Positions 4,399 to 51,504 of a stretch of 64,000 bases of DNA are shown piece by piece. The notes under the pieces were generated by a model, which had not been told where the DNA came from, ran no database searches, and saw nothing but the letters and a program-made list of their open reading frames with translations. The DNA comes from a virus, in the IMG/VR virus record IMGVR_UViG_3300014059_000004. One strand, 5' to 3'. Each line of letters begins with the position of its first letter. Within the stretch, counting starts at the first letter, position 1. The position numbers were made by a program, and so were the translations under genes.

Positions 4399-4780
4399 TC
4401 TTACGAAAGGATCGATCTGCGCTGATAATTTTCGAGTGCATGTTGTATCTGACGTTGAGTTGCACATGTACGCGGCGTTGGCTATGGCATTTTCTGGCGA
4501 CAAGAAAGCAGTGGCGTGGGCTGTGAAGAACGGAGAGCTGCACTTGTACAGCGCACCAGAGCATGTTGCTTTTCAGCTTCCTTTTCCTATGTCTTACGAT
4601 CTAAGCGCCAAGTTCGCTCTAGAATGGCTAAGTTCGTTGAAAGAAGATCAGCTTGGCAAGCAGCCTGACATAGACGGTAGCACCAGCAAAGGTTGGTGCA
4701 TTGATAACGAGCGCACTCACGTTGAAGATTGGAAGCTTCTAGCGAAGATCAAGCCTGTGTGGCTTACGTACCATAAGTGA
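4382..4780 (+). CDS. hypothetical protein
   Basis: ORF overlapping the upstream stop (translational coupling). Confidence 0.3.
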   Translation: MNYISDLTKGSICADNFRVHVVSDVELHMYAALAMAFSGDKKAVAWAVKNGELHLYSAPEHVAFQLPFPMSYDLSAKFALEWLSSLKEDQLGKQPDIDGSTSKGWCIDNERTHVEDWKLLAKIKPVWLTYHK

Positions 4781-5138: not shown

Positions 5139-6029
5139 ATGGCGATAAATCTAGAGGCAATTCGTAAGCGTATGGCAGAACTCAACGGGCAGAAGAAGAC
5201 GTCTTCTGTTCAACTTTGGAAGCCAACGCCGGGCGAGTATAAAATTCGTGCAGTTCCTTGGAAGAACTCCACAGATGACCTGCCTTTTCTTGAGAGGTGG
5301 TTCTACTACATCGGAAACGCACAAGGAATCCTGTCGCCGAAGCAGTTCGGTAAGCCGGATCCGATCGATGATCTGATCAGGAAGCTGTATTCTTCTGGAA
5401 AGCCAGAAGATCGTGCAATGGCAAAGCAGCTTCATCCGAAGATGAGAGCGTACGTTGCTGTCGTTGTTAGGGGTCAGGAAGACAAGGGCGTCCAGGTTTG
5501 GAGCATCGGCAAGGGAATCTACAATCGCTTGCTTGGATTCTTCTCTGACGAGGAGGTTGGAGATTTTCTTGATCCTCTCGTTGGATTTGACCTGAAGGTC
5601 ACGATCACCCAAGTGCCTGGAAAACAATACCCAGACACGACTGTTGATGCTGCTCGTAGGCCATCAAAGCTGATGGAAGATCCTGCACAGATCGAGAAGT
5701 TGCTGGCATCGACGCCGAACCTAGACGACATGTATCGTCAGAAGTCGAAGGAAGAGATCGAGAAGGTCTTGAACGATTGGCTGAACAGCGACGTTGCTGC
5801 ATCAGAAGATGGCACCGAGAAGGGTGCACCTGCTAATGATGCGCTCGATGCACTTGTCAACGAAGTTGCAACCGCAGCGAAGGCACAACCTGCTTCTGCA
5901 CCTGCAGAAGAGCCAAAGAAGCAGAGCAAGAAAAAGTCGACGGCATCTGACGATGACGATGATGCACCTAAGAAGAAGCAAACACTTGACGATGCATTCA
6001 ACGAGCTGATGGAGACATTACGTGGCTAA
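5139..6029 (+). CDS. ssDNA-binding protein, T4 gp32-like
   Basis: N-terminus 'MAINLEAIRKRMAELNGQKKTSS...' resembles the gp32 N-terminal region. Acidic C-terminal tail 'ASDDDDDAPKKK...DDAFNELMETL'. Strong RBS 'aaggaaagagga' upstream. Confidence 0.55.
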   Translation: MAINLEAIRKRMAELNGQKKTSSVQLWKPTPGEYKIRAVPWKNSTDDLPFLERWFYYIGNAQGILSPKQFGKPDPIDDLIRKLYSSGKPEDRAMAKQLHPKMRAYVAVVVRGQEDKGVQVWSIGKGIYNRLLGFFSDEEVGDFLDPLVGFDLKVTITQVPGKQYPDTTVDAARRPSKLMEDPAQIEKLLASTPNLDDMYRQKSKEEIEKVLNDWLNSDVAASEDGTEKGAPANDALDALVNEVATAAKAQPASAPAEEPKKQSKKKSTASDDDDDAPKKKQTLDDAFNELMETLRG

Positions 6030-7254
6030 ACCTGCCAAGGTTGTTGCGGGTGAAGAACCTGCAAAGAAGAAAGCTGCAAACAGCGACGTTGACGATCTTA
6101 CGACTGAGATCATCAAGTCCATCAACAAAGAGTTCGGTCAACGTGTAGCGTACAACCTATCAGTAGACGAAGCGCCCACCAACGTGAAGCGTTGGTTGGA
6201 CACTGGTTCTATTCAGCTGAATTACGCTATCAGAAATGCTGCTGGAGGTGGTTATCCTGAAGGTCGAGTAATCGAGATTTCTGGACCACCGTCGATAGGT
6301 AAATCACACCTAGCGTACCACGCTGCTGCCATCGTCCAAGGGATGGGTGGGCTGGTCGTTTACATTGACACTGAGAATGCAACGCCAGTTGAGAAGCTTA
6401 AGAACGTTGGCATCAACGTTGCAAAGAGGTTCGTGTACTGCGATGCACATTGCACTGAAGAAGTATTTTCGATCATCGAATCTACTATCTTGAAGGCAAA
6501 GCAAGTCATGGACAAGAACGTTCCAATTCTTGTCATATGGGACTCAGTGGCAGCAACATCACCGAAGGCAGAACTAGACGGTGATTACGATCAAAACACA
6601 GTTGGTTTGCAAGCCAGAGTCATCAGCAAAGGCATGAGAAAGATCACTGGTGTGATCGGTCAGAATAACGTGACCCTGCTATGCCTCAACCAACTTCGAA
6701 CCGCTATCGGTGTAATGCACGGAGATCCAGACATCACGCCGGGCGGAAAATCGATTCCTTACCACGCAACGCTCAGAATCAGGCTTTCTTCTGGAACGCA
6801 AGTTAAAGATAGCAGCGGAAATGTCATTGGCATCCATGTCATCATGACGACGAAGAAGAACAAAGTCGCACCTCCTTTTAGGAAGTACGAATTTGACGTC
6901 ATCTTTGGCAGGGGAATTTCTGAGCACACTTACATCTTTGACGAACTTCGATCACACTGTGAAAAGAACGCTGTGACGATCGATCACAAGGATAGCAAGG
7001 GAAACGTTGAAAAGCTTCAGATCACCATTGAAGGTACACAAGCCTGGAAGACGCTGAAAGTTTTCAGCACCGTGACTGGAGAAGTTCTCATCGAGAAGAA
7101 GTTCCAAAAGAACAATTTTGATGAGATAATGGCAGATCCAGTGTATAAGCCATTCATTGACAAAGCCATAGAAGAGACGTACACTGTTCACGGTGGTGAT
7201 CCAGATTCGTCCGGTGAATCACCTTCGGAAGAAGAGGTCCTCGATGAAAGTTGA
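6022..7254 (+). CDS. uvsX: UvsX/RecA-family recombinase
   Basis: Walker A 'GPPSIGKSH'. RecA-fold core 'LVIWDSVAAT' and 'LLCLNQLR'. Overall length and architecture of UvsX. Confidence 0.75.
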   Translation: MAKPAKVVAGEEPAKKKAANSDVDDLTTEIIKSINKEFGQRVAYNLSVDEAPTNVKRWLDTGSIQLNYAIRNAAGGGYPEGRVIEISGPPSIGKSHLAYHAAAIVQGMGGLVVYIDTENATPVEKLKNVGINVAKRFVYCDAHCTEEVFSIIESTILKAKQVMDKNVPILVIWDSVAATSPKAELDGDYDQNTVGLQARVISKGMRKITGVIGQNNVTLLCLNQLRTAIGVMHGDPDITPGGKSIPYHATLRIRLSSGTQVKDSSGNVIGIHVIMTTKKNKVAPPFRKYEFDVIFGRGISEHTYIFDELRSHCEKNAVTIDHKDSKGNVEKLQITIEGTQAWKTLKVFSTVTGEVLIEKKFQKNNFDEIMADPVYKPFIDKAIEETYTVHGGDPDSSGESPSEEEVLDES

Positions 7255-10807: not shown

Positions 10808-12318
10808 AAAATTCAAGTGTCAACATTGTTATCAACAATACAACAACCAGTCTGGTTTGATTACGCATATTCGACGCAAACATTCAACAACATTCACAGA
10901 TTACAAGTTGAAATTTGCGCATCTTTACAAAGTTGAAAAAAGAGAGAAAAAACTTAGTCTAAATGAACTAGCTAGACGTAAACGTGATGAAAAAGCTATT
11001 GATGATGGACTTAAAGTTTTGAAGTGCGAAATTTGCAATTATGAATCTTACTATTCTTTGATATCGCACATCGTAAGAAAACACGGTGTTGACATGAAGG
11101 AATATCGATCAAAGTATCCCTCAACTGTCGTGCAGCAAGTTACATCAGACATTAGGGAGAAAAATAAGAAGAATGCAACATTGCATCTTTCAGATCCGAT
11201 CAAGAAAGCAAACTTTCTAAAACGAAGATCTTTTCCCTCTGAGATGAAACATTGGATCAATAAGGGATTTTCATCAGATGAAGCAAAGAAAAAAGTTGCT
11301 GAATTTCAACAAAAGATTGCGCTTAAAGGCAATAATGAAAAAACGAAGGCAAAGCAGTCAATTAGAAATTCTGGTCAAAATAATCCAATGTCATTGACGT
11401 CAATTTCGAAACGCATGGGTGTTTCGAAGAATGAAGCAAGCAAATTGACGCCGTGTTATGGAAGATCAGGGTTTAAACACCCGATGTTTGGAAAAAAACA
11501 CAGCGTTGAAGCTTTGAACAAAATTGGTCGGCACATTAATCATACTGGTCGTTCGAAAATTGAACATGAAATGTCTGATTTGATCATTGCATTGTACGGT
11601 GGTCTAAAGAATGTTGGAGTCAACGGTTGGTGTTGTGATTACGTTAATCATAATCACCAAATCATAGTTGAATTTTTTGGTGATTATTGGCATCACAACC
11701 CAGAAAAATATGATAGAAATTTTGTCAACAACTTTACTAAACGTTCATCTGAAGAAGTTTGGTCACGTGATGCACGAAAATTGAATGAACTTAGAGAGAG
11801 TGGTTATAACGTTGTTGTGATCTGGGAATCTGATTGGCGAAACAAAAAAGAAGTCTGTTTGAACAGGATAAAAGATGCTTTCAATAGAACATTGTGAAGT
11901 TGTTGAAGTTGTTAAAATTGGTGATCTGTTTGATGATATTGGATTTGATGATAAATCTACTGTTGATGACTCTGGTGATTCATTCATTCCAAATGAATGG
12001 TCGATAGAAGTTAGATCACTTGACACTTTTTATCCTATAGATGGTTTTCGTTGGACAAAACCTGAACAGCAAGTGAAGTTGACATATGGCAAAGAATCTT
12101 CTTTGCAATGCTCACCAGAACACATTGTTTTGAAGTATTCTTCTACAGAAACTCAATGGACAAAAGTCAATGATCTATCGCCGGGTGATGACATTGTCAC
12201 TGTTAATGGCATTTGTACGATTGATTCGATTGATAATCTCGAGGAAATTGATCGTCTTTGCGATTTTCAAGTATCAATTGCGCACTCTTATTATGCTGAC
12301 GGTGTGTTGTCACATAAC
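10664..12318 (+). mobile_element. fractured-gene element: atypically split intein (47-aa N-fragment) plus homing-endonuclease gene inside the helicase P-loop
   Basis: The three pieces are in three different frames. The extein junction reconstitutes 'GTGK-S'. Confidence 0.5.
10716..11897 (+). CDS. free-standing homing endonuclease (C2H2 zinc fingers plus Vsr-like PD-(D/E)xK nuclease) between intein fragments
   Basis: 'CQHCYQQY...HIRRKH' and 'CEICNYES...HIVRKH' C2H2 fingers. C-terminal 'IIVEFFGDYWHHNP...VVVIWESDW' Vsr-like motif. Confidence 0.55.
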   Translation: MENYTSLGIELQQNAESSLLEMSSNQTSLSEKFKCQHCYQQYNNQSGLITHIRRKHSTTFTDYKLKFAHLYKVEKREKKLSLNELARRKRDEKAIDDGLKVLKCEICNYESYYSLISHIVRKHGVDMKEYRSKYPSTVVQQVTSDIREKNKKNATLHLSDPIKKANFLKRRSFPSEMKHWINKGFSSDEAKKKVAEFQQKIALKGNNEKTKAKQSIRNSGQNNPMSLTSISKRMGVSKNEASKLTPCYGRSGFKHPMFGKKHSVEALNKIGRHINHTGRSKIEHEMSDLIIALYGGLKNVGVNGWCCDYVNHNHQIIVEFFGDYWHHNPEKYDRNFVNNFTKRSSEEVWSRDARKLNELRESGYNVVVIWESDWRNKKEVCLNRIKDAFNRTL

Positions 12319-13116
12319 TCTCATTTCTTGACGTTCTTGGGTGCAATGGCGCTGAGGAACAACGTTGATGTTCTTCACTACACGTTCGAGCTATCAGAGA
12401 CTCAAGTTGGTATCAGGTACGATTCTAACTTGTGTGACATTGATTCGAATGCTGTCATTGACAGCAAGGATCGTATTCTTACTAAGTACGCAGAGCAAAA
12501 GCTGGGACGCTTGATCATCAAGTACTTTCCGACGAACACGGCTAGCATCTACACGCTTCGAAGTCACATCGAGCGCCTCGGAACGAAGGGTTTCAGGCCA
12601 GGATTGATCATCATCGACTATGCTGACATCATGAGATCAACTCGTCAGTTCGATTCTTTGAGACACGAGCTTAAGCTCGTTTACGAAGAACTAAGAGGAA
12701 TGGCTGGCGAGCTAGGAATCCCAGTGTGGACAGCGAGCCAGAGCAACAAAGAGGGAGCGACAAGCGAGATCATCGACATGGGAAACATGTCTGAAGCTTA
12801 CGGCAAGGCGATGATCGCTGACGTGATCGTCAGCATCTCTAGGCGCGCTCACGAGAAGTCAACGGGTCAAGGTCGATTGTACGTTGCAAAGAATCGTGCA
12901 GGGCGCGATGGTCTTGTTTACCCGTTGCACATTGACACCTCAAAGAGCAACTTTGAGATCTTGGGTGGACCGGGTTCTTTGGACGTCGCCATGAAGGAGA
13001 ACGAATCTGACATTAAGAAAGTTCTTCGTTCAAAGTGGAACGAGATGAGAAATGATCCAATCATCGGCGAAAATCTAAAAAGAGGAAGCGATTCTAGCGA
13101 TGACACGGGTTCTTGA
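11875..13116 (+). CDS. intein C-piece (148 aa, contains block B and terminal 'SHN') fused to helicase C-terminal RecA-like domain
   Basis: 'LTYGKESSLQCSPEHIVL' (block B-like)...'YYADGVLSHN|S', then helicase motifs 'LIIIDYADIM' and 'GIPVWTASQSNKEG'. Confidence 0.55.
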   Translation: MLSIEHCEVVEVVKIGDLFDDIGFDDKSTVDDSGDSFIPNEWSIEVRSLDTFYPIDGFRWTKPEQQVKLTYGKESSLQCSPEHIVLKYSSTETQWTKVNDLSPGDDIVTVNGICTIDSIDNLEEIDRLCDFQVSIAHSYYADGVLSHNSHFLTFLGAMALRNNVDVLHYTFELSETQVGIRYDSNLCDIDSNAVIDSKDRILTKYAEQKLGRLIIKYFPTNTASIYTLRSHIERLGTKGFRPGLIIIDYADIMRSTRQFDSLRHELKLVYEELRGMAGELGIPVWTASQSNKEGATSEIIDMGNMSEAYGKAMIADVIVSISRRAHEKSTGQGRLYVAKNRAGRDGLVYPLHIDTSKSNFEILGGPGSLDVAMKENESDIKKVLRSKWNEMRNDPIIGENLKRGSDSSDDTGS

Positions 13117-19536: not shown

Positions 19537-20421
19537 ATGAAAAAGAACGTTGATCGACTGTCAGAGATGTGGGAACAGCAACATGATTTCATGAAGCTGC
19601 TGTGCGAACGTCGTGGCTTTCCTCAATTTCCCGTTGACATGAAGACTAAGGTCGGACAACGATTCTTGAAGGGAATAACGTACGATTGCATGGATGAGCT
19701 GTTTGAAGCCAACCAAGAGCTGAAGAACAGCAAGGGTCATCGTGCAACAGAGATTTCCGAGCTAGATCGTGAAGCGTACGTTGAAGAGCTTGTCGATGCA
19801 CTTCACTACTTCTTTGAGATCGTCATTGCATCAGGTGTGACGCTTGATGAGATGCACGAAGCGTACATGAAAAAAGGTGAAGTCAACCGAAAAAGGATCG
19901 AATCAGGGTACTTAGCCCCTGTACATTGCTTAAGGAGTGTTTTATCATGTCTTCACGAGATTGGTTCTCGTGGAAAGGAAAACATTACTATGCTAACTCG
20001 TTACTATGATACGATGAGAAATCCAACCTACAAGTTCGGTGACTTTAACGCAATCTTTGATGACATGCTTTCAATTGATCCATTTAAGTCAGAATCTTCT
20101 ATCTGGACGAAGAAGATCATGAACAATCTACCAGAACCAACGTTTTGGCATGAGAAGACTGAAGAAGGTTCTGCTCTTCACGTTGAACTACCGGGATACA
20201 AGAAAGAAGACGTATCGATAACGCTGCAAGACAAGACTCTTGTTGTCAAGGCTGAACGTAAGATGCCCGGCGGTGCGAAGACTGTCTCGTGGAGCTGGCG
20301 CATTCAGGATACGTACGAGTCCAATCCAACGTTTGCGAAGCTAGCTGATGGCATCCTTACGATAGGATTGAAGAGTAAACAACCACCACCTGAAGAAGCA
20401 CTCAGCATAAAGATCGAGTAA
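19537..20421 (+). CDS. MazG-like all-alpha NTP pyrophosphohydrolase fused to a small heat-shock protein (alpha-crystallin/Hsp20) domain
   Basis: N-terminal 'DCMDELFEA...EAYVEELVDALHYFFE' EExxE-type MazG motifs. C-terminal 'ALHVELPGYKKEDVSITLQDKTLVVKAERK...ILTIGLK' alpha-crystallin domain. Confidence 0.5.
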   Translation: MKKNVDRLSEMWEQQHDFMKLLCERRGFPQFPVDMKTKVGQRFLKGITYDCMDELFEANQELKNSKGHRATEISELDREAYVEELVDALHYFFEIVIASGVTLDEMHEAYMKKGEVNRKRIESGYLAPVHCLRSVLSCLHEIGSRGKENITMLTRYYDTMRNPTYKFGDFNAIFDDMLSIDPFKSESSIWTKKIMNNLPEPTFWHEKTEEGSALHVELPGYKKEDVSITLQDKTLVVKAERKMPGGAKTVSWSWRIQDTYESNPTFAKLADGILTIGLKSKQPPPEEALSIKIE

Positions 20422-20634: not shown

Positions 20635-21312
20635 ATGGGAAATAGATCTGATCAAGTTAAAAAGTTGTGGCAAACACCAGAATTTCGTGAAAAAATTATC
20701 GCAGCATCTAAAGACGGAAAAGCGTCGATTGAATCAAAACTTAAGCGTTCTAAAAGCTCAAGTAAATTGTGGTCTGATCCGGATTATTGTGAAAAACAAC
20801 GAATAAAACACAATGAACGAAAGAAAAGATTTGAACAAAAGCGAGTGACTATAACGTGTCTGACGTGTGGAAAAGAATGTAAGGTTAATGCAACAGTTGC
20901 AAAAACTAAGAAGTATTGTTCTCGTCGTTGCGTTATTAACAATCCGGCTTTTAACGTAAATCGAAATTTTTCCAGCAGCACGTGTGCTGCTTGTCAGGCA
21001 GAATTTAAACCAACAGGTGCTAAGCAGTTGTGCTGCACTACATGCGTTCCAAATAATTCAGCAAAATCACGTTGGAATTCGTATAAATTGACTCAACCAA
21101 TGTATGAAATGTTGCTAAGTCAACAGGGAAATTGTTGCGCACTGTGCGAAATTTCATTCAGTAATTTGAATTCAAAAGAAATTCATGTAGATCATGATCA
21201 TACTACAAATAAAATTCGTGGCATATTGTGTATGCGGTGCAATCGTAGCTTGGGTGTGGTAGAGTATATTCCACACTTTTTGGAAAAAGTAGCAACTTAT
21301 GTCAACATTTGA
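20635..21312 (+). CDS. free-standing HNH homing endonuclease
   Basis: 'HVDHDHTTNKIRGILCMRCNRSLG' HNH motif. Multiple CxxC Zn-ribbons. Confidence 0.6.
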   Translation: MGNRSDQVKKLWQTPEFREKIIAASKDGKASIESKLKRSKSSSKLWSDPDYCEKQRIKHNERKKRFEQKRVTITCLTCGKECKVNATVAKTKKYCSRRCVINNPAFNVNRNFSSSTCAACQAEFKPTGAKQLCCTTCVPNNSAKSRWNSYKLTQPMYEMLLSQQGNCCALCEISFSNLNSKEIHVDHDHTTNKIRGILCMRCNRSLGVVEYIPHFLEKVATYVNI

Positions 21313-22252
21313 TATCGATACACGAACAATCATTCGTGTAATTCATGGTTCATATGCATATGGACTCAACATTGCAGGTTCAGATATCGATTACAAGGCT
21401 GTTTGTGTACCTACAAAAGAGCGGTATTTTGGATTTTTGAACAACTTTGAACAGGCTGAGATGATGGCATCAAAAACAGGTGGTGTTGACTCTGTGACCT
21501 TTGCACTTGATAAGTTCGTGCGGCTCGCTGCTGACTGCAACCCAAACATCATAGAGATCCTGTTCGTTGATGACAGCGACGTCCTCGACATCAATTCTTG
21601 GGGCGAAGAGCTCCGTGAGTTCAAAGACAATTTCATATCCAGGAAGGCGAAGCACACTTTCTCGGGCTACGCTCATGCTCAGCTTCATCGCATCAAGAAT
21701 CACCGTGCATGGTTGCTGAACCCTCCCGCGAGCGCTCCAGCACGATCCGATTTTGGGCTGTCCGACGTGTCTCGTGTCTCGAAGAGTGAGCTCGGCGCTT
21801 ACGATTCTGCGATCGAGAGCGGTATTGCTCTCGACGTGCCGAAGAGCGTCTTGACTCTGTTCACAAGGGAAAAGCAGTACGCCGCAGCAAAGACGCACTA
21901 CGACCAGTACGTTCACTGGAAGAAGTCTCGCAATCCTGCTCGAGCAGAGCTCGAAGCAAAGATTGGATATGATAGTAAACATGGCGCGCATCTCATAAGG
22001 TTGATGCGCATGTGCAAGGAGATCCTTGAGACTGGCAAGGTTAACGTGAAGCGTCGATTCGATAGAGAGGAACTTCTGGAGATTCGTAACGGTCATCGTC
22101 CCTACGATAGCCTCATCGAGGAAGCTGAGAGGCTTGAGAGCGATTGTGAAGAGCTGTACAAGACTTCTACAGTGCGCAAAGAGCCCGATCGGGAGAAGAT
22201 CGATGCATGGCTCGTGGATTTCACTGAGCGTTACCTTGCAATTCATGGCTGA
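21299..22252 (+). CDS. Pol-beta-superfamily nucleotidyltransferase
   Basis: 'IHGSYAYGLNIAGSDIDY' matches hG[GS]x9-13Dh[DE]h. GC-richer than the flanking genes. Confidence 0.5.
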   Translation: MSTFDIDTRTIIRVIHGSYAYGLNIAGSDIDYKAVCVPTKERYFGFLNNFEQAEMMASKTGGVDSVTFALDKFVRLAADCNPNIIEILFVDDSDVLDINSWGEELREFKDNFISRKAKHTFSGYAHAQLHRIKNHRAWLLNPPASAPARSDFGLSDVSRVSKSELGAYDSAIESGIALDVPKSVLTLFTREKQYAAAKTHYDQYVHWKKSRNPARAELEAKIGYDSKHGAHLIRLMRMCKEILETGKVNVKRRFDREELLEIRNGHRPYDSLIEEAERLESDCEELYKTSTVRKEPDREKIDAWLVDFTERYLAIHG

Positions 22253-22319: not shown

Positions 22320-23195
22320 ATGGGAAAGCTCAATCAAGTCATTGCAGTTGAAAAGTCGGTGAAGAACAAGGCTCATGCTGCGATCACTGAGATCTACCAG
22401 AAGATGCAGAAGGCTCCCCTCCTGCAGGGAATTTCGCGGACGTACCGTCCGAAGGACGAGCTTGGTGAGGTTCTTCCGTCTGAGTCGTCCCGTGTTCAGC
22501 TGAATGCTACGGATTTCCTCAAGGAGCTCTCGTCAACCTTGACGGATCTCTTTGACGTCACTGCGACGAAGGATTTCGCGAACTGCGAGGCTCGCACTGA
22601 TCTTACGGTCGGTGATGTGGTTCTTGCGAAGAACGTGCCGGTTACGTACCTTCTCTTCCTCGAGAAGAAGCTGGTTGATCTGCACACGTTCGTCAGCAAG
22701 CTTCCCGTCCTTGACTCTTCGGAGGAGTGGACTCTGGATCCGAATGTGAACTGCTACGCTACGAAGCCGTCCGAGACGACTCGTACGAAGAAGGTCTTTG
22801 TCCCGCTTGTCCTTGCTCCGGCGACTGACAAGCACGCAGCCCAAGTCAAGGAGGGCTACGAGGATCAGGTCGTGGGTTTCTGGAAGACTGTGAAGTTCTC
22901 CGGAGCTCTTCCGGCTCAGCGAGTTGCTGAGCTTCTGGCTCGAGTCGAGAAGCTGCAGCGTGCAGTGAAGTTCGCTCGTGAGGAATGCAACGCTCGTGAA
23001 GCACCACCAGTCCAGGTTGGAGCCCGCGTTTTCGATTACCTGTTCGGTTTATCCGTAACAGGTTTGCGCAAGCTGAAAATCAGCCTTACGCTAACAGAGA
23101 GAGCTAGCAAAATTGTAGGTTCAAATCCTACCCCCTCCACTGACTCACAGTCAAGGAGTGATTCACCTCAAGTTATGCTTGGAACGAATCAATGA
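22320..23195 (+). CDS. hypothetical protein; the 3' end probably runs spuriously into the tRNA-like locus
   Basis: 291-aa ORF in the GC-rich island. Its last 25 codons overlap a tRNA T-arm/acceptor sequence. Confidence 0.35.
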   Translation: MGKLNQVIAVEKSVKNKAHAAITEIYQKMQKAPLLQGISRTYRPKDELGEVLPSESSRVQLNATDFLKELSSTLTDLFDVTATKDFANCEARTDLTVGDVVLAKNVPVTYLLFLEKKLVDLHTFVSKLPVLDSSEEWTLDPNVNCYATKPSETTRTKKVFVPLVLAPATDKHAAQVKEGYEDQVVGFWKTVKFSGALPAQRVAELLARVEKLQRAVKFAREECNAREAPPVQVGARVFDYLFGLSVTGLRKLKISLTLTERASKIVGSNPTPSTDSQSRSDSPQVMLGTNQ

Positions 23196-23243
23196 GGAGG
23201 GGTGGCGGAACTGGCAGACGCACTGGTGATCTCAACTCAACCT
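23115..23243 (+). tRNA. tRNA-like pieces in permuted order: T-arm plus 3' acceptor strand (23115-23139), then 56 nt downstream a perfectly complementary 5' acceptor strand with a tRNA-Leu-like D-arm (23196-23221); the anticodon arm does not fold cleanly
   Basis: 'gtaggttcaaatcctac-cccctcc-a', then 'ggagggg-tg-gcg-gaactggcaga-cgc'. Confidence 0.3.
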
Positions 23244-23326
23244 GAAGCTATCGCAACAGGTTCACTTAGTCGATAAAGGATGCAAGGATCAATCAATCGT
23301 TCACCGGCTGAATATTGCGAACTAGT

Positions 23327-23434
23327 GTGAGTTCAAATCTCACCCGCGCCTCCATGTTCCAACAGGAACAGCTGAAGCAGTAAATAAGGCGCGGTAGCTT
23401 AATGGCAGAGCGAGGTCGTCTAAGGACTGACTGG
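23327..23434 (+). tRNA. circularly permuted tRNA-like gene: 3' half (T-arm, acceptor, CCA; 23327-23354) lies 33 nt upstream of the 5' half (acceptor, D-arm, anticodon arm, variable loop; 23388-23434); joined at 48/49 it gives a 75-nt cloverleaf with anticodon CUA
   Basis: 'gtgag-ttcaaat-ctcac-ccgcgcc-t-cca' and 'ggcgcgg-ta-gctt-aatggca-gagc-g-aggtc-gtCTAag-gactg-actgg'. The acceptor stem is 7/7 complementary. Canonical U8, A14, G18G19, A21 and T54-Psi55-C56 are present. Confidence 0.4.
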
Positions 23435-23503
23435 TGAACTTAAACGTGTGATCCCTTTCTGTAAAAAATCGACGTCAACACGATAAGTTGACTAACTCTA
23501 GAT

Positions 23504-23535
23504 GGCCCGGGTAGGATACACCCGGGCCGTCGCTA
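23504..23535 (+). terminator. GC-rich hairpin (ggcccggg...cccgggcc) followed by 'taatttt'
   Basis: 8-bp perfect stem, 9-nt loop, T-rich tail. Just upstream of pnk. Confidence 0.4.
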
Positions 23536-23582
23536 ATTTTGGGACAGTGCACTTATTGCACTAACAGTGTTAGGATAAAAGA

Positions 23583-24563
23583 ATGAGAACTGTTTTCATC
23601 TTGCGTGGGTTGCCGGGGTGTGGAAAGTCGACTTTCGCAGCGAGCCTCGTTGCAAAGGAGCCAAAGCGCTGGGTTCGCATCAACCGTGATGACCTGAGGT
23701 CTATGTCAGTGGGACCAGCAAACAACCCGCACACCGGTGACAAGACTCGTGAAGAGTTTGTTCGTGAGGCGAAGAACAACCTGCTGTCTGCTGCGTTGAA
23801 GTCCGGTTACGATGTCATCTTGGACGACACGCACCTTGTGCCGCAGACCGTGAAGAAGCTGCACACGTTCGTGGAATCGATCGGCAACGTGAAGGTCATC
23901 GAGAAGTCTTTCAACGTTGACGTAGAAGAGGCAATCGCCCGTGATGCGAAGCGCTCAGGCTTTGCTCACGTGGGTGAGAAGGTCATCCGTGACATGGCTC
24001 GTGGAGCCGGATTGGAAGGTCGACGAAAGCTGCCTGATCGTGAAGTTTACTACCCACCGATCGGTTGCGGCGATCCCCTGACGATCAATCCAGATCTTCC
24101 AACAGCTATCATGGTCGACTTGGACGGTACGCTTGCTCTCATCGGCGATCGTTCGCCTTACGATGCGACCGACTGCGACGAAAAAGATTTGCCGAACTGG
24201 CCTGTCATCAAAACGGTCCTGGCGATGCATGCTCAAGGCGTGAAGATCATCTTCATGAGCGGCCGCGACGTGAAGTATCGTCCAGAAACTGTGCGGTTCA
24301 TCGAGAAGTACTGCCGTGAGATCGATCTGAAGCTCTGGGGCCCGGGCGGTCAGCCAATTCCCTATGAGCTGCACATGCGCGGTGAACTGGATCTGACTAA
24401 AGTTGATCAGCGAAAGGACAGCATCATCAAGGAAGAACTCTTTGATGCTCATGTTCGTGGGAAGTACAACGTTCTGTTCGTTCTTGACGATCGGAATCAG
24501 GTTTGTAGAAAATGGCGTGAATTGGGTCTAACCGTTTTTCAAGTAGCAGAAGGTGATTTTTAG
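23583..24563 (+). CDS. pnk: polynucleotide 5'-kinase/3'-phosphatase (T4 Pnk-like)
   Basis: N-terminal P-loop 'ILRGLPGCGKSTFA...INRDDLR'. C-terminal HAD phosphatase 'IMVDLDGTLA'. Ends '...LDDRNQVCRKWRELGLTVFQVAEGDF', nearly identical in pattern to the T4 Pnk C-terminus. Confidence 0.8.
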   Translation: MRTVFILRGLPGCGKSTFAASLVAKEPKRWVRINRDDLRSMSVGPANNPHTGDKTREEFVREAKNNLLSAALKSGYDVILDDTHLVPQTVKKLHTFVESIGNVKVIEKSFNVDVEEAIARDAKRSGFAHVGEKVIRDMARGAGLEGRRKLPDREVYYPPIGCGDPLTINPDLPTAIMVDLDGTLALIGDRSPYDATDCDEKDLPNWPVIKTVLAMHAQGVKIIFMSGRDVKYRPETVRFIEKYCREIDLKLWGPGGQPIPYELHMRGELDLTKVDQRKDSIIKEELFDAHVRGKYNVLFVLDDRNQVCRKWRELGLTVFQVAEGDF

Positions 24564-24599: not shown

Positions 24600-24857
24600 A
24601 TGAGTGCTGTGAAGCACATCATGTTCGGCCTCGTTGCGGTGGAAGACTTTCAAAAAGTCGCTGATCGATTGTACGAACTGGGTGCTGAGGGTGTAGATCA
24701 GCTCTACAGGGACACTAACTCTGTAGAGCTGGCATCTCGGTGCTACGTTCAAGTTAACGAAAGCTGCCATGATTCCATCTTGGATGAACTGAAGAGTTCA
24801 TCCAACGTTTGTGACATCATGATTCCAGCGCAGAGAGTGGTAAGAAAGAGAGCGTAA
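24600..24857 (+). CDS. hypothetical protein
   Basis: 85-aa ORF. Confidence 0.3.
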   Translation: MSAVKHIMFGLVAVEDFQKVADRLYELGAEGVDQLYRDTNSVELASRCYVQVNESCHDSILDELKSSSNVCDIMIPAQRVVRKRA

Positions 24858-24858
24858 C

Positions 24859-25644
24859 GTGAAAAAATACGATCGTACCCGACACATTCGAGGAAGTCGT
24901 TTCCAACACGGAGACGATGATCTTGAAGCTGTTCCGTGGGAAGATCTTGCTGGCAAGAATCTTGTCGTAGAAGAAAAAATTGATGGCGCAAATGTTGGTA
25001 TCAGCTTTGAAGATCAACGCTTGATGCTGCAATCACGAGGGCACTACCTTAGAGGTGGTCCTCGTGAGACTCAATTCAACCTTTTGAAGCAATGGGCAAC
25101 TTCAAAGACAGAAGATCTGTACTGCGTTCTCGAAGATCGTTACGTTATGTTCGGTGAGTGGATGTATGCATGTCACACCATGTTTTACGATGCATTGCCT
25201 CACTACTTCATGGAGTTTGACGTATACGATCGAGACACAAATCTCTACCTTGATACGCCGTCCAGAATGCAGCTTTTGGCACCGCTAAACTTGCAGTCTG
25301 TGTTGGTCTTGAAGAGCGGAAAGTTCTTGAAGTTGAAAGAGCTTCAGTCTCTCATCCTTAGATCAAACTTCGTGACTGATCAACGTAATGAAAATTACGT
25401 GAAGTCTGCCAGAGCAGCGTACCCAGAAAAGACAGATGAAGAGATCCTAGCGAAACTTGACAAGAACGACACGATGGAAGGCCTCTACGTGAAATGGGAA
25501 GAAGGAGGTTATGTCCGTGGACGTTACAAGTTTGTTCGTGAATCATTCATTTCGTCTATTACGGGTCAAGAAGAACATTGGCGTGACAGACCAATTGTTC
25601 CGAATTGCCTGACGCCGCTAGCGTTGGAAAAAATGTTCGAATAA
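24859..25644 (+). CDS. ATP-dependent RNA ligase-like nucleotidyltransferase
   Basis: Motif I 'EEKIDGANVGI' (KxDGxN). Motif IV 'EGLYVKWEEGG' (EGxVxK). Confidence 0.55.
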   Translation: MKKYDRTRHIRGSRFQHGDDDLEAVPWEDLAGKNLVVEEKIDGANVGISFEDQRLMLQSRGHYLRGGPRETQFNLLKQWATSKTEDLYCVLEDRYVMFGEWMYACHTMFYDALPHYFMEFDVYDRDTNLYLDTPSRMQLLAPLNLQSVLVLKSGKFLKLKELQSLILRSNFVTDQRNENYVKSARAAYPEKTDEEILAKLDKNDTMEGLYVKWEEGGYVRGRYKFVRESFISSITGQEEHWRDRPIVPNCLTPLALEKMFE

Positions 25645-26513
25645 CGGAGTATTATTCACGCATGCCAAAAATTGCATGGGCCACAGATATCCACCTTGAC
25701 ACTCTGGAGAAAACGCCAGAGAAGATCGTTCAGTTCGCAGAATCGTTGATCGTCGATCAACCAGATGCAATCGTTTTGACGGGTGATCTTTCAACGTACG
25801 CTGATCTAACGTACCACCTGTCTATCATCGAACGTGTTGTCCAGCGACCTGTTTACTTCGTCCTTGGAAATCATGATTTCTGGGGCGGCGGCGTCTCTGA
25901 CGTTCGTCTTGAGATGAAGAACCTCAGCAACATGTCGCAGTTCTTGCGATACTTGCCGAACACTCCGTACGTGACGTTGTCACCAACAACAGCTCTTGTT
26001 GGTCATGACTGTTGGTACGATGCGGGCTACGGGTCACCGATGACAAGCACGATGATCATGAATGACTGGATCAGGGTGAAAGATTTTGCCGTAGAGCACT
26101 GCGTCACGTACGGAGATACGTACGGATCATACAAGACTAACAAACCTAAGGTCATCGAGATCTCGAAGAAGCTAGCGTCTGAAGGTACAGCGCACATCAT
26201 CAATGGCATAAAAACAGCGGCAAAGTATCACAAAGTGATCATGATTGCCACGCACTTTCCACCATTCCAAGAGACTCATCTCTACAATGGTAAAGTTGGC
26301 GATGCAGCTGCACAGCCATGGTACACGAACAAGATGCTCGGTGACGTTCTTCGTCAAGCAGCATCACAGCTTCCAAAGGTCAGGTTTGAGGTCTTTGCTG
26401 GTCACACTCATGGGAAGTGTGACATGCAGATCAGCGACAACTTGTTTGTTCACGTTGGCGAAGCCGAGTACAAGCAACCACGCTTGCAGAATGTCATCAC
26501 GGTGCCTTTATGA
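25605..26513 (+). CDS. calcineurin-like metallophosphoesterase (alternative start 25662 'MPKIAW')
   Basis: 'DIHLD', 'LTGDLSTY' and 'VLGNHDFW' metallophosphatase motifs. Confidence 0.6.
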   Translation: MPDAASVGKNVRITEYYSRMPKIAWATDIHLDTLEKTPEKIVQFAESLIVDQPDAIVLTGDLSTYADLTYHLSIIERVVQRPVYFVLGNHDFWGGGVSDVRLEMKNLSNMSQFLRYLPNTPYVTLSPTTALVGHDCWYDAGYGSPMTSTMIMNDWIRVKDFAVEHCVTYGDTYGSYKTNKPKVIEISKKLASEGTAHIINGIKTAAKYHKVIMIATHFPPFQETHLYNGKVGDAAAQPWYTNKMLGDVLRQAASQLPKVRFEVFAGHTHGKCDMQISDNLFVHVGEAEYKQPRLQNVITVPL

Positions 26514-49651: not shown

Positions 49652-50221
49652 ATGAGCAAGCAAGCTAATCCAACATTCGTGATGTACGTCGGACCCATGT
49701 GGTCATCAAAATCATCTCGATTGTTGATGGAGCTTGAGCGTTGCAAGTACCAGAAGAGAAACGCTCTAGTTTTCAAGCCTGCGATAGATGATCGCTACTC
49801 TACGTCTCAGATCGTGACGCACGGTGGTTGGCGTCACGATGCAGTCACTGTCAATAACGCAGAAGGTATTCTTGCGAAAGTTCTTGAAGAGCAGAACAAC
49901 GACATTAGCATCATCGCAGTAGATGAAGCTTTCATGATTAACGGCGTTGCTGATGCTTTGACGTTCTTGTACAGGAACGGCTACAACATCATAGTGTCAA
50001 CGCTTGACACTGCATTCAATGGTAAGCCGTTCGATGAAGTGACAAAGATGCTGCCTTGGGCAACGTCAATAGAGAAGTGCTCAGCAGTGTGCACGATCTG
50101 CTCGCAAGATGCTCATTTTACGTACAAGAAGAGCGAAGATGAAACGTTGCTTGAAGTTGGCGGGCACGAGCTATACGAGCCGCGTTGCTTGCGATGTCAT
50201 CCTTTCATAGTGCTAACATGA
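49652..50221 (+). CDS. tdk: thymidine kinase
   Basis: 'MYVGPMWSSKSS' P-loop. C-terminal Zn ribbon 'CAVCTICS...CLRCH'. Confidence 0.75.
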   Translation: MSKQANPTFVMYVGPMWSSKSSRLLMELERCKYQKRNALVFKPAIDDRYSTSQIVTHGGWRHDAVTVNNAEGILAKVLEEQNNDISIIAVDEAFMINGVADALTFLYRNGYNIIVSTLDTAFNGKPFDEVTKMLPWATSIEKCSAVCTICSQDAHFTYKKSEDETLLEVGGHELYEPRCLRCHPFIVLT

Positions 50222-51504
50222 TTCAATCTGAAATAGATTTGTGTCCTATTTGTCATGGCAAAAAAAAGTCAAAAAATGATTACTGTTCAAAAACATGCTT
50301 CCAGAAAAGCAAACGAGTCACCATTAAATGCGTTCAATGTAATTCTGCATTCAATGTTTTGAAGTGTTATGCTGACAATGGAAGAAAGTTTTGTTCAAGA
50401 AAATGTAGCGCTTTGCACAACAAAGCTGAACAAAAATCTATAACGCATGTTCAAGTAAATTGCTCTTGGTGTAACAAAACAAATTTTCGTTATCGTTCAA
50501 CAATTGTTGCGCATGCAAATTGTTTTTGTGGTAGAGAATGTTATCTAGCATTTCATTCACAAAATAAAATTGTAGTGCAATGCAGTGGAAAAGATTGTTC
50601 AAACTTTGTGAAAAGCAATCTGAAACATCATTATGATCGTTATTGTTCTCGTGATTGTTACAAAAGATCTTACGAACCAGAAAATTTTAACAAGAACTTT
50701 CTTAAAGGAAGATACAAGTCAACAAAGGCTGGAACAGTTCATTACGATTCTAGCTATGAGCTACGAAGATTCAAAGAACTGGATTTTGACAATACAGTTC
50801 TAGCATGGGGTAGATGTAAAGATAAAATTCTTTGGTCTGATGAAGAAGGTAATGCACACTATTACAATCCTGATCTCTTCATCAATTATGACTCTAATAT
50901 CGTGGTCGTTGAAGAGATTAAGGGCTACGTTAATGAACATACGAATAAAAAGATCGAAGCCGCTAGATCTTTTTATTCCAACAAGAACATTGAATTTCGC
51001 GTGATTTATGAACGCGATCTTGAACCTATTGAAAAAATTCATGAATACTATGAAAATGACATAGGCACATTCAGTAGATCGTCATATGATTCTATTTGGA
51101 TGCATGTTGCAGTTGCATTTGCAAAAAGATCAACATGTTGCAGATTGCGAGTTGGCGCAGTTTTTGTTGATCAACATAATGAACGCGTTCTATGCCTGGG
51201 CTACAATGGATCAAATTCTGGAGGGCTTAATGGCTGTGATTCCCTAACACCAGGTTCTTGTGGTTGCATTCATGCAGAAATTAATGCCATTTCTCACGCA
51301 TCTGAATCTCTTGAAAATTCCACAGTTTACGTAACTACATCTCCATGCATAATGTGTGCAAAAAGTCTAATTAACAGTCGAGTTGGAAGAATCGTGTACT
51401 TGCAAAAGTACAGAAATTCAACTGGTGTAAAATTGCTTCGTGAAGCTGGAATTCAAGTTGATTCTTATCAGGATCTAGTAGATTTCTCAAATGAATCAAG
51501 ATGA
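50185..51504 (+). CDS. in-frame fusion: Zn-finger/PD-(D/E)xK homing-endonuclease-like N-terminal region plus dCMP deaminase (deaminase could start independently at M 51100)
   Basis: N-terminal multiple CxxC motifs and 'YNPDLFINYDSNIVVVEEIKG'. C-terminal 'MHVAVAFAKRSTCC...VGAVFV' and 'CIHAEINAI...SPCIMCAKSLIN' deaminase motifs. Confidence 0.55.
   Translation: MLAMSSFHSANMIQSEIDLCPICHGKKKSKNDYCSKTCFQKSKRVTIKCVQCNSAFNVLKCYADNGRKFCSRKCSALHNKAEQKSITHVQVNCSWCNKTNFRYRSTIVAHANCFCGRECYLAFHSQNKIVVQCSGKDCSNFVKSNLKHHYDRYCSRDCYKRSYEPENFNKNFLKGRYKSTKAGTVHYDSSYELRRFKELDFDNTVLAWGRCKDKILWSDEEGNAHYYNPDLFINYDSNIVVVEEIKGYVNEHTNKKIEAARSFYSNKNIEFRVIYERDLEPIEKIHEYYENDIGTFSRSSYDSIWMHVAVAFAKRSTCCRLRVGAVFVDQHNERVLCLGYNGSNSGGLNGCDSLTPGSCGCIHAEINAISHASESLENSTVYVTTSPCIMCAKSLINSRVGRIVYLQKYRNSTGVKLLREAGIQVDSYQDLVDFSNESR

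Follow-up and report, generated by a model that had tools for sequence, protein, structure and literature searches.

Circularly permuted genes for transfer RNA (tRNA), known from Cyanidioschyzon merolae, some green algae and Thermofilum pendens, encode the 3' half ahead of the 5' half and separate the two acceptor strands by a linker, and they yield decoding tRNAs via a circular intermediate that involves a bulge-helix-bulge, a splicing endonuclease and a ligase. A related architecture is found in YrlA, a bacterial and phage Y RNA bound by Ro60, whose tRNA-like domain consists of a T-arm, a loop-closed acceptor-like stem and a D-arm, with the chain entering and leaving via the 'anticodon' stem (PMC4201824). 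The YrlA of Mycobacterium smegmatis has a 7-bp acceptor stem and undergoes cleavage by ribonuclease P (RNase P) and CCA addition in vivo, which gives two base-paired pieces (Chen et al. 2014, PMC4201824), while Rsr and YrlA occasionally adjoin other RNA ligase families (bioRxiv 10.1101/312249). Here we describe a locus in a 64-kb viral sequence from IMG/VR record IMGVR_UViG_3300014059_000004; this whole stretch is called the window, its coordinates are used throughout, and all elements of the locus lie on the + strand. It is likely that positions ~23063-23541 encode one or two conserved structured RNAs with tRNA-mimic heads and a YrlA-like architecture, beside a gene of the DUF7873 family (22320-23195). 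The original prediction had read the same region as permuted tRNA genes, one of them an amber suppressor, and had taken such a topology to be unknown in phages, which overlooks that YrlA has the same connectivity and was reported in 22 phages (PMC4201824).

Two RNA units, X and Y, are located between the DUF7873 gene and a PNKP gene. Unit X, as read from the sequence, comprises a T-arm GTAGG-TTCAAAT-CCTAC (23115-23131), the 3' acceptor strand CCCCTCC (23132-23138) and a discriminator A (23139), followed by a 56-nt linker (23140-23195), a non-conserved loop that closes the acceptor stem and is unalignable among relatives, and then by a part (23196-23228) with the 5' acceptor strand GGAGGGG (23196-202), U8, a Leu-like D-arm (stem 23205-07/23219-21) and a 5' anticodon-stem-like strand (23223-28). 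Unit Y has the T-arm GTGAG-TTCAAAT-CTCAC (23327-43), the 3' acceptor strand CCGCGCC (23344-50) and a discriminator U with an encoded CCA (23351-54), and its 33-nt linker (23355-23387) carries a 6-bp hairpin, TGTTCC-AACA-GGAACA (23355-70). The 3' part of Y (23388-23473) starts with the 5' acceptor strand GGCGCGG (23388-94), U8, a D-arm (23397-411) and the anticodon-stem-like strand AGGTCGT (23413-19), continues with a conserved loop CTAAGGACTGA (23420-30), which holds the 'CUA' originally taken for an anticodon, and the 3' strand of helix P1 (23431-38), and ends with TTAAACGTG (23440-48) and the 3' strands of helices P0 (23449-54) and P-2 (23468-73). Upstream of the T-arm, the 5' stalk strands of Y (23269-23326) consist of P-2 (23269-74), P0 (23286-91), the motif ATCAATCG, P1 (23300-07), the motif CTGAA (23308-12), the anticodon-stem-like strand GCGAACT (23317-23) and a 3-nt variable loop (23324-26).

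The tRNA-likeness of both units is genuine, as each has a T-arm with a TTCRA loop, a 7-bp acceptor stem, U8 and a D-arm with GG. All coordinates in the original prediction for the two T-arm/3'-acceptor segments upstream of a 7/7 complementary 5' acceptor strand, U8 and D-arm were confirmed, along with the encoded N73-CCA and the hairpin-bearing linker of Y and the Leu-like D-arm of X. That the region holds no conventional collinear tRNA was borne out as well: ARAGORN detected 0 tRNA or transfer-messenger RNA (tmRNA) genes in the whole window, no Rfam family matched the window at its gathering score, and RF00005 in E-value mode matched a T-arm fragment alone (14.8 bits). From the sequence as described and the absence of an ARAGORN or Rfam tRNA it follows that the halves in the wrong order are real and are not pieces of ordinary tRNA genes.

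Support for the structure was obtained from an alignment (A3) in which the complete RNA region of the window was placed beside those of its five nearest relatives; these sequences together are referred to as the six relatives. RNAalifold predicted 82 pairs in this alignment, 44 of them with compensatory double changes. A 13-helix model in window coordinates (H1; T, acceptor and D of X; H2; P-2, P0, P1, anticodon-like, T, acceptor and D of Y; terminator) was 94.0% paired in the six relatives, versus 77.0% in shuffled controls (0/500) and 33-46% when the partners were slid, and 51 of its 79 pairs change on both sides. The anticodon-like stem of Y, in which GCGAACT pairs with the distant AGGTCGT, was 97.6% paired with both-side changes at 6/7 pairs, and the same kind of change was seen at 8/8 pairs of P1, 6/6 of P0 and 5/6 of P-2. 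Both-side changes with 100% pairing were also observed in the acceptor stems (5/7 pairs in X, 3/7 in Y) and in the T-arm of X (3/5). The G.U pairs and the model matches are strand-specific and indicate an RNA of the + strand.

A covariance model (R1) was then built from six linker-trimmed Y units. It scored 139.6 bits on the window over 23285-23455 and retrieved 78 full-length Y RNAs at E ≤ 1e-8 in 91 sources, all of them on the + strand and downstream of DUF7873. In the 78-member alignment fitted to R1 (A7), 94.7% of positions were paired, versus 57.7% after shuffling and ~40% after sliding, and 37/37 pairs covary, including every pair of P0, P1 and the anticodon-stem-like helix. An alignment-free test of the outer helices of Y gave a mean of -32.4 kcal/mol for cognate flanks versus -21.9 kcal/mol for non-cognate ones, with 28 of 51 cognate flanks beating at least 95% of the non-cognates. 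The long-range anticodon-like stem was paired at 5/5 positions in 58/82 Y units and 40/85 X units, and in these 40 X units the register (N26, 5 bp and a 5-nt variable loop) is exactly that of a tRNA. Unpaired motifs are conserved in the Y stalk too, namely ATCRA (64/78, within the first 35 nt), UGA before the 3' strand of P1, and CUUAAACG (TTAAA in 67/78). When 50-54 diverse units were aligned with MAFFT and folded with RNAalifold, the T, acceptor and D helices were recovered, and for Y also P1 and P0, while the anticodon-like stems and the whole X stalk were missed through misalignment; for this reason we relied on register counts, the cognate/non-cognate comparison and the covariance-model alignment.

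A blastn search in distant mode with 23000-23580 gave no match among GenBank phages, and homologous loci were therefore collected via the DUF7873 protein. Its relatives were found in 75 GenBank phages (of Gordonia, Arthrobacter, Rhodococcus, Vibrio, Rhizobium, Klebsiella, Serratia, Ralstonia and cyanobacteria), on several hundred IMG/VR viral contigs and in at least 584 bacterial-genome stretches, mostly from Streptomyces and other actinomycetes and also from myxobacteria, Deinococcus and Chloroflexi, and a large protein collection holds >5,000 homologues. The comparison set comprised 172 DUF7873 loci, 92 viral and 80 bacterial, and the DUF7873 gene lies upstream of the RNAs in 172/172. A strict scan (a T-arm, then a 7/7 complementary strand ≤160 nt away, then U or A) detected at least one permuted unit in 150 of the 172 loci, exactly two in 95 and one in 49. 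The density of units was 1.96/kb downstream of DUF7873 versus 0.038/kb elsewhere in the same loci (both strands), a 52-fold enrichment. Permuted units occur in phages of Actinobacteria, Cyanobacteria, Vibrio and Ralstonia and in many bacterial phyla; in the annotated phages inspected, the ~350-550 bp after DUF7873 are blank or covered only by tiny dubious open reading frames (ORFs). We define a DUF7873-linked tRNA-mimic RNA pair as two permuted heads ~150-210 nt apart, on the same strand as DUF7873 and directly downstream of it, and the window carries such a pair.

The heads vary in sequence and keep their form. Among non-identical units there are 40 different acceptor sequences in X and 53 in Y, with complementarity kept, and N8 is U in 85/85 X units and in 100% of units overall. 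The discriminator is A in 73/85 X units, and CCA follows the discriminator in 29/85 X and 22/83 Y units, where chance would give about 1.3 (estimated at 1/64 per unit). Linkers of the homologues range from 5 to 62 nt in X, with a median of 9 nt, and from 6 to 76 nt in Y, and many actinophage linkers consist of ACCA plus 3-6 nt. In relatives such as L014, L004 and L002 the Y linker is unconserved in sequence, yet it often forms a small stable hairpin right after CCA, frequently with a GAAA loop. In another locus (L102), from a Ktedonobacterales metagenome-assembled genome, full-length Y-type RNAs lie at 6337-6485 and 6902-7042, ~560 nt apart, and the core of the Y model gives a further, weaker match at 6780-6844; this points to duplication of the module or to additional copies.

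The closest described RNA is YrlA. The best permissive Rfam match in 22950-23650 was to the YrlA family (RF02553), whose whole 114-position model aligned with 23301-23440 (26.8 bits, E = 0.0017) and paired TCACCGG (23301) with CTGGTGA (23431) as the closing stem. Y units from phages of Gordonia and Arthrobacter matched YrlA over the full model with 31-37 bits. Neither these homologues nor the window reached 69 bits, the gathering score set by Rfam. Mycobacteriophages encoding Ro60 are among those in which YrlA was described, and the scores can be calibrated on mycobacteriophage Bxz1, whose best match to the YrlA model, 189 nt upstream of its Ro60 gene, has 32.5 bits; the threshold thus excludes the Ro60-linked Bxz1 RNA too, and the Y scores are in the range of a Ro60-linked phage RNA. 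Like YrlA, the RNAs of the DUF7873 loci have a T-arm, a loop-closed acceptor stem and a D-arm set on a stem made by the 5' and 3' ends, lie next to, and in the same orientation as, the gene for a partner protein, here a likely one, frequently come in twos, and can sit in RNA-repair operons; the motif CUUAAACG is common to them and the Bxz1 RNA. They differ in their own stalk motifs, ATCRA and UUAAACG, and in their invariable neighbour, DUF7873. The 7-bp acceptor stem of the M. smegmatis YrlA is likewise present here, with UCCA encoded by Y, so that comparable processing may occur, although the partner protein differs.

No Ro60 gene was detected: tblastn with Bxz1 Ro60 against the window and the 172 loci returned nothing better than E = 0.097, and no TROVE domain was found in the Pfam scan of 20 window ORFs from which the domain, Ro60 and TROVE context of the window was taken. 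The window covers 64 kb of the phage genome, so that a Ro60 gene may lie elsewhere in it. The lone weak Ro60-like match among the 172 loci (L056:6187-6807; 23% identity over 271 aa, E 0.097), ~2.4 kb downstream of DUF7873, is a candidate TROVE gene.

The comparison that tells most is between two Trinavirus phages. In Rhodococcus phage NiceHouse (L008) the order is tRNA-Tyr, tRNA-Lys, DUF7873, the X/Y RNAs, tRNA-Lys and a Band-7-like gene, while at the same place its sister phage Trina (L175) has permuted tRNA-like units (4696-4757 and 5563-5703), Ro60 and, directly after it, the Band-7-like gene. One of the Trina units overlaps an annotated 209-nt 'tRNA-OTHER' pseudogene. The DUF7873 search gave no match in Trina, and the inspected stretches of NiceHouse carry no annotated Ro60 gene. 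From this swap at the same syntenic position, DUF7873 with its RNAs occupies the niche of Ro60 with its Y RNAs in Trinavirus. A general mutual exclusion of Ro60 and DUF7873 among phages was considered and not adopted, since it was seen for the Trinavirus pair alone. R1 gave a weak match to the Ro60-linked RNAs of Trina.

A further likeness is to the b7a-tRNA, a non-coding, tRNA-like RNA predicted in RNA-repair settings and associated there with a protein other than Ro60; in NiceHouse a Band-7-like gene follows the DUF7873-RNA module after one tRNA-Lys gene. The b7a-tRNA is described as strongly resembling an authentic collinear tRNA, which the units described here do not, and no Band-7 gene stands beside the RNAs of the window. 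Searches of the full-text literature found no paper mentioning DUF7873 and nothing relevant on permuted tRNA in phages or Y RNA in Streptomyces, and in the loci put through Rfam the RNAs stayed below the threshold of every family. The design of a tRNA-mimic, Y-like RNA is thus known, while the linkage to DUF7873, the two-headed layout and the stalk motifs appear undescribed in the literature searched. On these comparisons the module is probably a widespread and so far undescribed variant of the YrlA type, whose likely partner is another protein.

The following organization can be proposed. The region would give one structured transcript or two adjacent ones, probably co-transcribed with DUF7873 and ending at an intrinsic terminator. 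Each head would consist of a T-arm, a 7-bp acceptor stem capped by the variable linker, U8 and a D-arm, with the 'anticodon stem' formed by the flanks, and in Y this stem would continue into a long stalk (P1, P0, P-2) with the internal-loop motifs ATCRA, CUGA and UUAAACG. The permuted look of the gene order comes only from the entry and exit of the chain at the place where a tRNA has its anticodon loop, together with the loop that closes the acceptor stem. With a stem formed by the flanks, no cutting or rejoining is needed and no anticodon exists. The DUF7873 protein may bind the RNA via the stalk motifs. The heads may be cleaved by RNase P just before G+1 (23195/23196 and 23387/23388) and then trimmed by exonucleases as far as the CCA of Y, which would leave two-piece molecules; this suggestion is based on the 7-bp stems with U8, the CCA enrichment, the linkers of ACCA plus 3-6 nt and the precedent of the M. 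smegmatis YrlA. The resulting ribonucleoprotein (RNP) would expose a surface shaped like a tRNA to enzymes that handle tRNA and would serve tRNA repair or surveillance as a cofactor, scaffold or decoy, in analogy to Ro60-YrlA in rsr-rtcB operons. Such a role is suggested by the repair cassette present here, by actinophage tRNA arrays and by the Ro60 swap; a decoy would address factors that recognize the body of a tRNA or its CCA end, and one for anticodon nucleases is impossible, since there is no anticodon loop. In the clade of the window the module would be placed inside an RlaP-PNKP-ligase-phosphoesterase repair cassette.

Several observations weigh against this interpretation. The alignment of the 78 Y RNAs, being fitted to R1, is biased towards the structure of that model. 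The Ro60-binding motif GNCGAAN0-1G was found in 0 of the 78 Y RNAs (first 35 nt), which leaves a homology with YrlA outside the tRNA-like core unproven, and R1 matched the Bxz1 YrlA over the tRNA-like core only (17.6 bits). The predicted structure of DUF7873 (mean predicted local distance difference test score, pLDDT, 87.9) matched no solved fold and so offers no RNA-binding precedent. We infer the binding of the protein to the RNAs from gene linkage alone, and the function as repair cofactor or decoy from a context limited to the clade of the window. Unit X of the window gave no match to the Y-derived R1 and its stalk was not recovered by alignment, and its putative 3' anticodon-like strand TAACAG (23092-97) pairs with CTGGTG (23223-28) at 5/6 positions, with one G.A mismatch.

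Among the other explanations, a protein-RNA conflict module is unlikely. It would be type III toxin-antitoxin-like or a defence/counter-defence system, with DUF7873 as the effector and the RNA as inhibitor, sensor or bait. A two-part module with its own terminator, patchily distributed in phages and distant bacteria among unrelated neighbourhoods and with thousands of homologues of its protein (>5,000), would suit such a system, and repeated CUGA/UCAG-type motifs flank unit X. However, PADLOC gave no match, the order of protein and then RNA and the absence of tandem identical repeats differ from the known type III systems, no feature marking a nuclease or toxin was found in DUF7873, and the replacement of Ro60 and Y RNA in Trinavirus points to a Ro60-like role instead.

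It is very improbable that the units, once cleaved by RNase P and charged at the CCA end, serve as a two-piece tRNA-like RNA on the ribosome, in translation or in ribosome rescue, in the manner of the two-piece tmRNA from permuted ssrA. That RNA shares with the present units a permuted acceptor/T-arm piece and 5' acceptor strand, an encoded CCA and two paired pieces after processing, and unit X gave a weak match to the tmRNA_permuted model (RF04321) via its T-arm and acceptor; the 13.6 bits of this match compare with a threshold of 47. The enrichment of CCA after the discriminator and the conservation of the discriminator itself (A in 73/85 X units) would agree with aminoacylation, as would the cleavage and CCA addition known for the M. 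smegmatis YrlA, but most members have no encoded CCA. No tag reading frame and no pseudoknots are present here, ARAGORN finding no tmRNA, and decoding is impossible with no anticodon loop. The G3:U70 pair is missing too, the stems of the window having A3:U70 and C3:G70.

The reading that was first put forward, in which Pnk, ligase and phosphoesterase would mature a 75-nt amber-suppressor tRNA(CUA) from circularly permuted gene Y and a Leu-like tRNA from X, now has very little left in its favour, and the permuted-tRNA-gene and amber-suppressor reading is not supported. It still holds that the 3' half comes first, with acceptor strands complementary at 7/7 positions, that Y carries a CCA and that genes of repair enzymes adjoin, and ARAGORN does call the re-permuted 75-mer of the window as tRNA(cta); the same operation on the homologues, however, gave no call for 32 of 83 Y units and scattered odd anticodons for the rest. 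The local anticodon hairpin on which the call depends (AGGTC 23413-17/GACTG 23425-29) was 43.3% paired in the six relatives, which is the level of shuffled sequences (348/500), and a canonical local arm (N26, 5 bp, 7-nt loop) was paired at 5/5 positions in 0/82 Y and 2/85 X units, whereas the competing long-range stem and stalk covary strongly. The 'CUA' itself, read as the partner of the UAG codon, sits in the conserved motif CUAAGGACUGA, an internal loop of the stalk, and the homologues hold no consistent anticodon. Known permuted tRNA genes resemble the units in gene order, but the units lack a conserved anticodon arm and their termini are fixed in long helices that covary: no bulge-helix-bulge (3-4-3) was found at the precursor termini, where helices of 7, 8, 6 and 6 bp with loops of 9-11 nt occur instead. 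The splicing endonuclease used for permuted tRNAs is not known from bacteria or phages, which also counts against this reading. Pnk and ligase, which were thought necessary to cut, heal and seal the precursor, have no such part to play if the flanks P1, P0 and P-2 already hold the ends together, and 164 of the 172 RNA-bearing loci have no repair genes. Finally, there is a negligible chance that the region is non-functional debris (tRNA pseudogenes, integration remnants or chance hairpins in a 3' untranslated region), for although annotations are blank, tiny ORFs or a 'tRNA-OTHER' pseudogene and the DUF7873 ORF of the window runs through unit X, the arrangement is conserved across phages and bacterial phyla with compensatory changes in every helix and is 52-fold enriched at this position.

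Unit X and the regions that flank the two units add further detail to the picture of a tRNA-mimic RNA pair. Upstream of X, a hairpin CCTGTT...AACAGG (23039-23062), read from the sequence, lies where the homologues have a stop codon and a post-stop hairpin, equivalents being visible by eye in L001, L014, L015 and L002 of the six-relative alignment; it may mark the 5' boundary or a processing site of the RNA. The leader hairpin H1 (AGCTGA/TCAGCC, 23071-23085), predicted by RNAalifold, changes on both sides at 2/6 pairs with 78% of cells paired, and CTGAA/TTCAG hairpins resembling it occur in distant X leaders. Next follow the 3' anticodon-like strand already mentioned and a long variable region (23098-23114), together 23092-23114. 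The six relatives have six different complementary stems at this position of X, and the anticodon-like helix of the window copy is regarded as tentative. A Leu-like D-arm with a long variable region, as in class II tRNA, characterizes the X units of the clade of the window. Between X and Y, RNAalifold predicted hairpin H2 (AACCTG/CAGGTT, 23239-23262) with the conserved loop AAGCTATCGCAA, which is near-invariant in the six relatives, so that covariation is uninformative; a TATCGC-type loop motif as in H2 recurs in distant X units. R1 matches the X units of some loci over the full length of the model (e.g., L005:4832-4967, 43 bits), which suggests that X and Y are paralogous designs. The 5' leaders of bacterial X units (e.g., L097:5770-5812 and L104:5825-5868) contain near-hexamer repeats such as AAGCTG AAGCTG AAGCTT and AAACTG AAACTG, and in their 3' trailers a conserved core, CTCGC or TATCGC, is surrounded by related CTCAGACT/CAGACTCAG motifs; these repeats may be repeated protein-binding sites or alternative pairings.

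At the downstream end, a terminator scan detected an intrinsic terminator (23501-23541) before the PNKP gene, with a stem (23504-12/23520-28) in which 7/9 pairs change on both sides among the six relatives, a conserved loop TAGGATAC and a T-run. The loop is conserved while the stem covaries (23488-23531), and TAGGATAC coincides with a promoter-like arrangement of TTGACT, 18 nt and TAGGAT, so that a promoter for the PNKP gene could be embedded in the terminator. RNAalifold also proposed a helix between UGCGC of the 5' leader (23066-70) and CGUGUG (23445-50) of the conserved UUAAACGUGUG, which would link the beginning of X with the end of Y; the changes in this helix are one-sided only, it overlaps with P0, and it was left as unproven.

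The DUF7873 protein, the likely partner of the RNAs, was identified by Pfam (PF25283, E 1.3e-102, residues 1-242). No match was found between its fold and Ro60 or SPFH/Band-7 structures, provided that the searched sets contain them. The conserved end of the protein lies near 23048, homologues stopping after '..DYLFG', while the ORF of the window does not have that stop and runs on for 49 codons (23046-23195) through the leader, T-arm and linker of unit X to a TGA directly before G+1. An identical 291-aa protein (P0001) stands for 10 member sequences, seen on 2 contigs, and a sequencing error is therefore an unlikely cause of the readthrough.

Upstream of DUF7873 is a gene for an RlaP nucleotidyltransferase (21299-22252; Pfam PF10127, E 3.5e-19), which belongs to a clade-specific RNA-repair context, and downstream of the two RNA units (~23063-23541) are PNKP (23583-24563), a small ORF (24600-24857), an RNA ligase (24859-25644) and a metallophosphoesterase (25605-26513), with PNKP, ligase and phosphoesterase assigned by Pfam and PHROGs. 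All four of these downstream genes are context and no defining part of the DUF7873-RNA module. RlaP is linked to the module in only 5/92 viral loci, and RlaP, PNKP or phosphoesterase adjoin it in 8/92 viral loci, several of which are duplicate contigs and which are confined to the clade of the window, and in 0/80 bacterial loci; with adjacency so confined, the repair enzymes cannot be the general maturation machinery. In bacteria such as Deinococcus and Streptomyces the neighbouring genes are unrelated and the module stands by itself. Unusual domain combinations are encoded in other parts of the window, namely a dUTPase_2 fragment fused to HSP20 (19537-20421), a TnsA-like endonuclease N-terminal domain fused to dCMP deaminase (50185-51504), and a DnaB-like helicase with a weak intein-splicing match (11875-13116). 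In Gordonia phage Phendrix (L005:2072-2600; MN096369.1 ~83523-84051), Rfam detected a full-length tmRNA (89 bits, E 3e-33) in the gap between the tRNA-Asn and tRNA-Arg genes, where the record has no tmRNA feature.

Overall, the analysis removes a false lead, that of phage permuted tRNA genes with an amber suppressor, and exposes a large covarying family of tRNA-mimic RNAs that is left blank or overwritten in the phage records inspected. It would give DUF7873 a candidate role as an RNA partner and would extend the theme of Y RNA and tRNA mimicry beyond Ro60, with the Ro60/DUF7873 swap in Trinavirus serving as a natural experiment, and the module becomes a candidate accessory factor of phage tRNA-repair cassettes. 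We further put forward, as a tentative proposal that may well prove wrong, that DUF7873 and its dual tRNA-mimic RNA form an undescribed and very widespread RNP, with homologues of the protein in phages of at least five bacterial lineages, which would be a Ro60-independent counterpart of the Ro60-Y RNA system, whose heads, nicked by RNase P, would expose CCA and which would act on or protect tRNAs in phage-host conflict. If true, this would explain both the wiring with RlaP, PNKP and ligase in the clade of the window and the embedding of the module in actinophage tRNA arrays.

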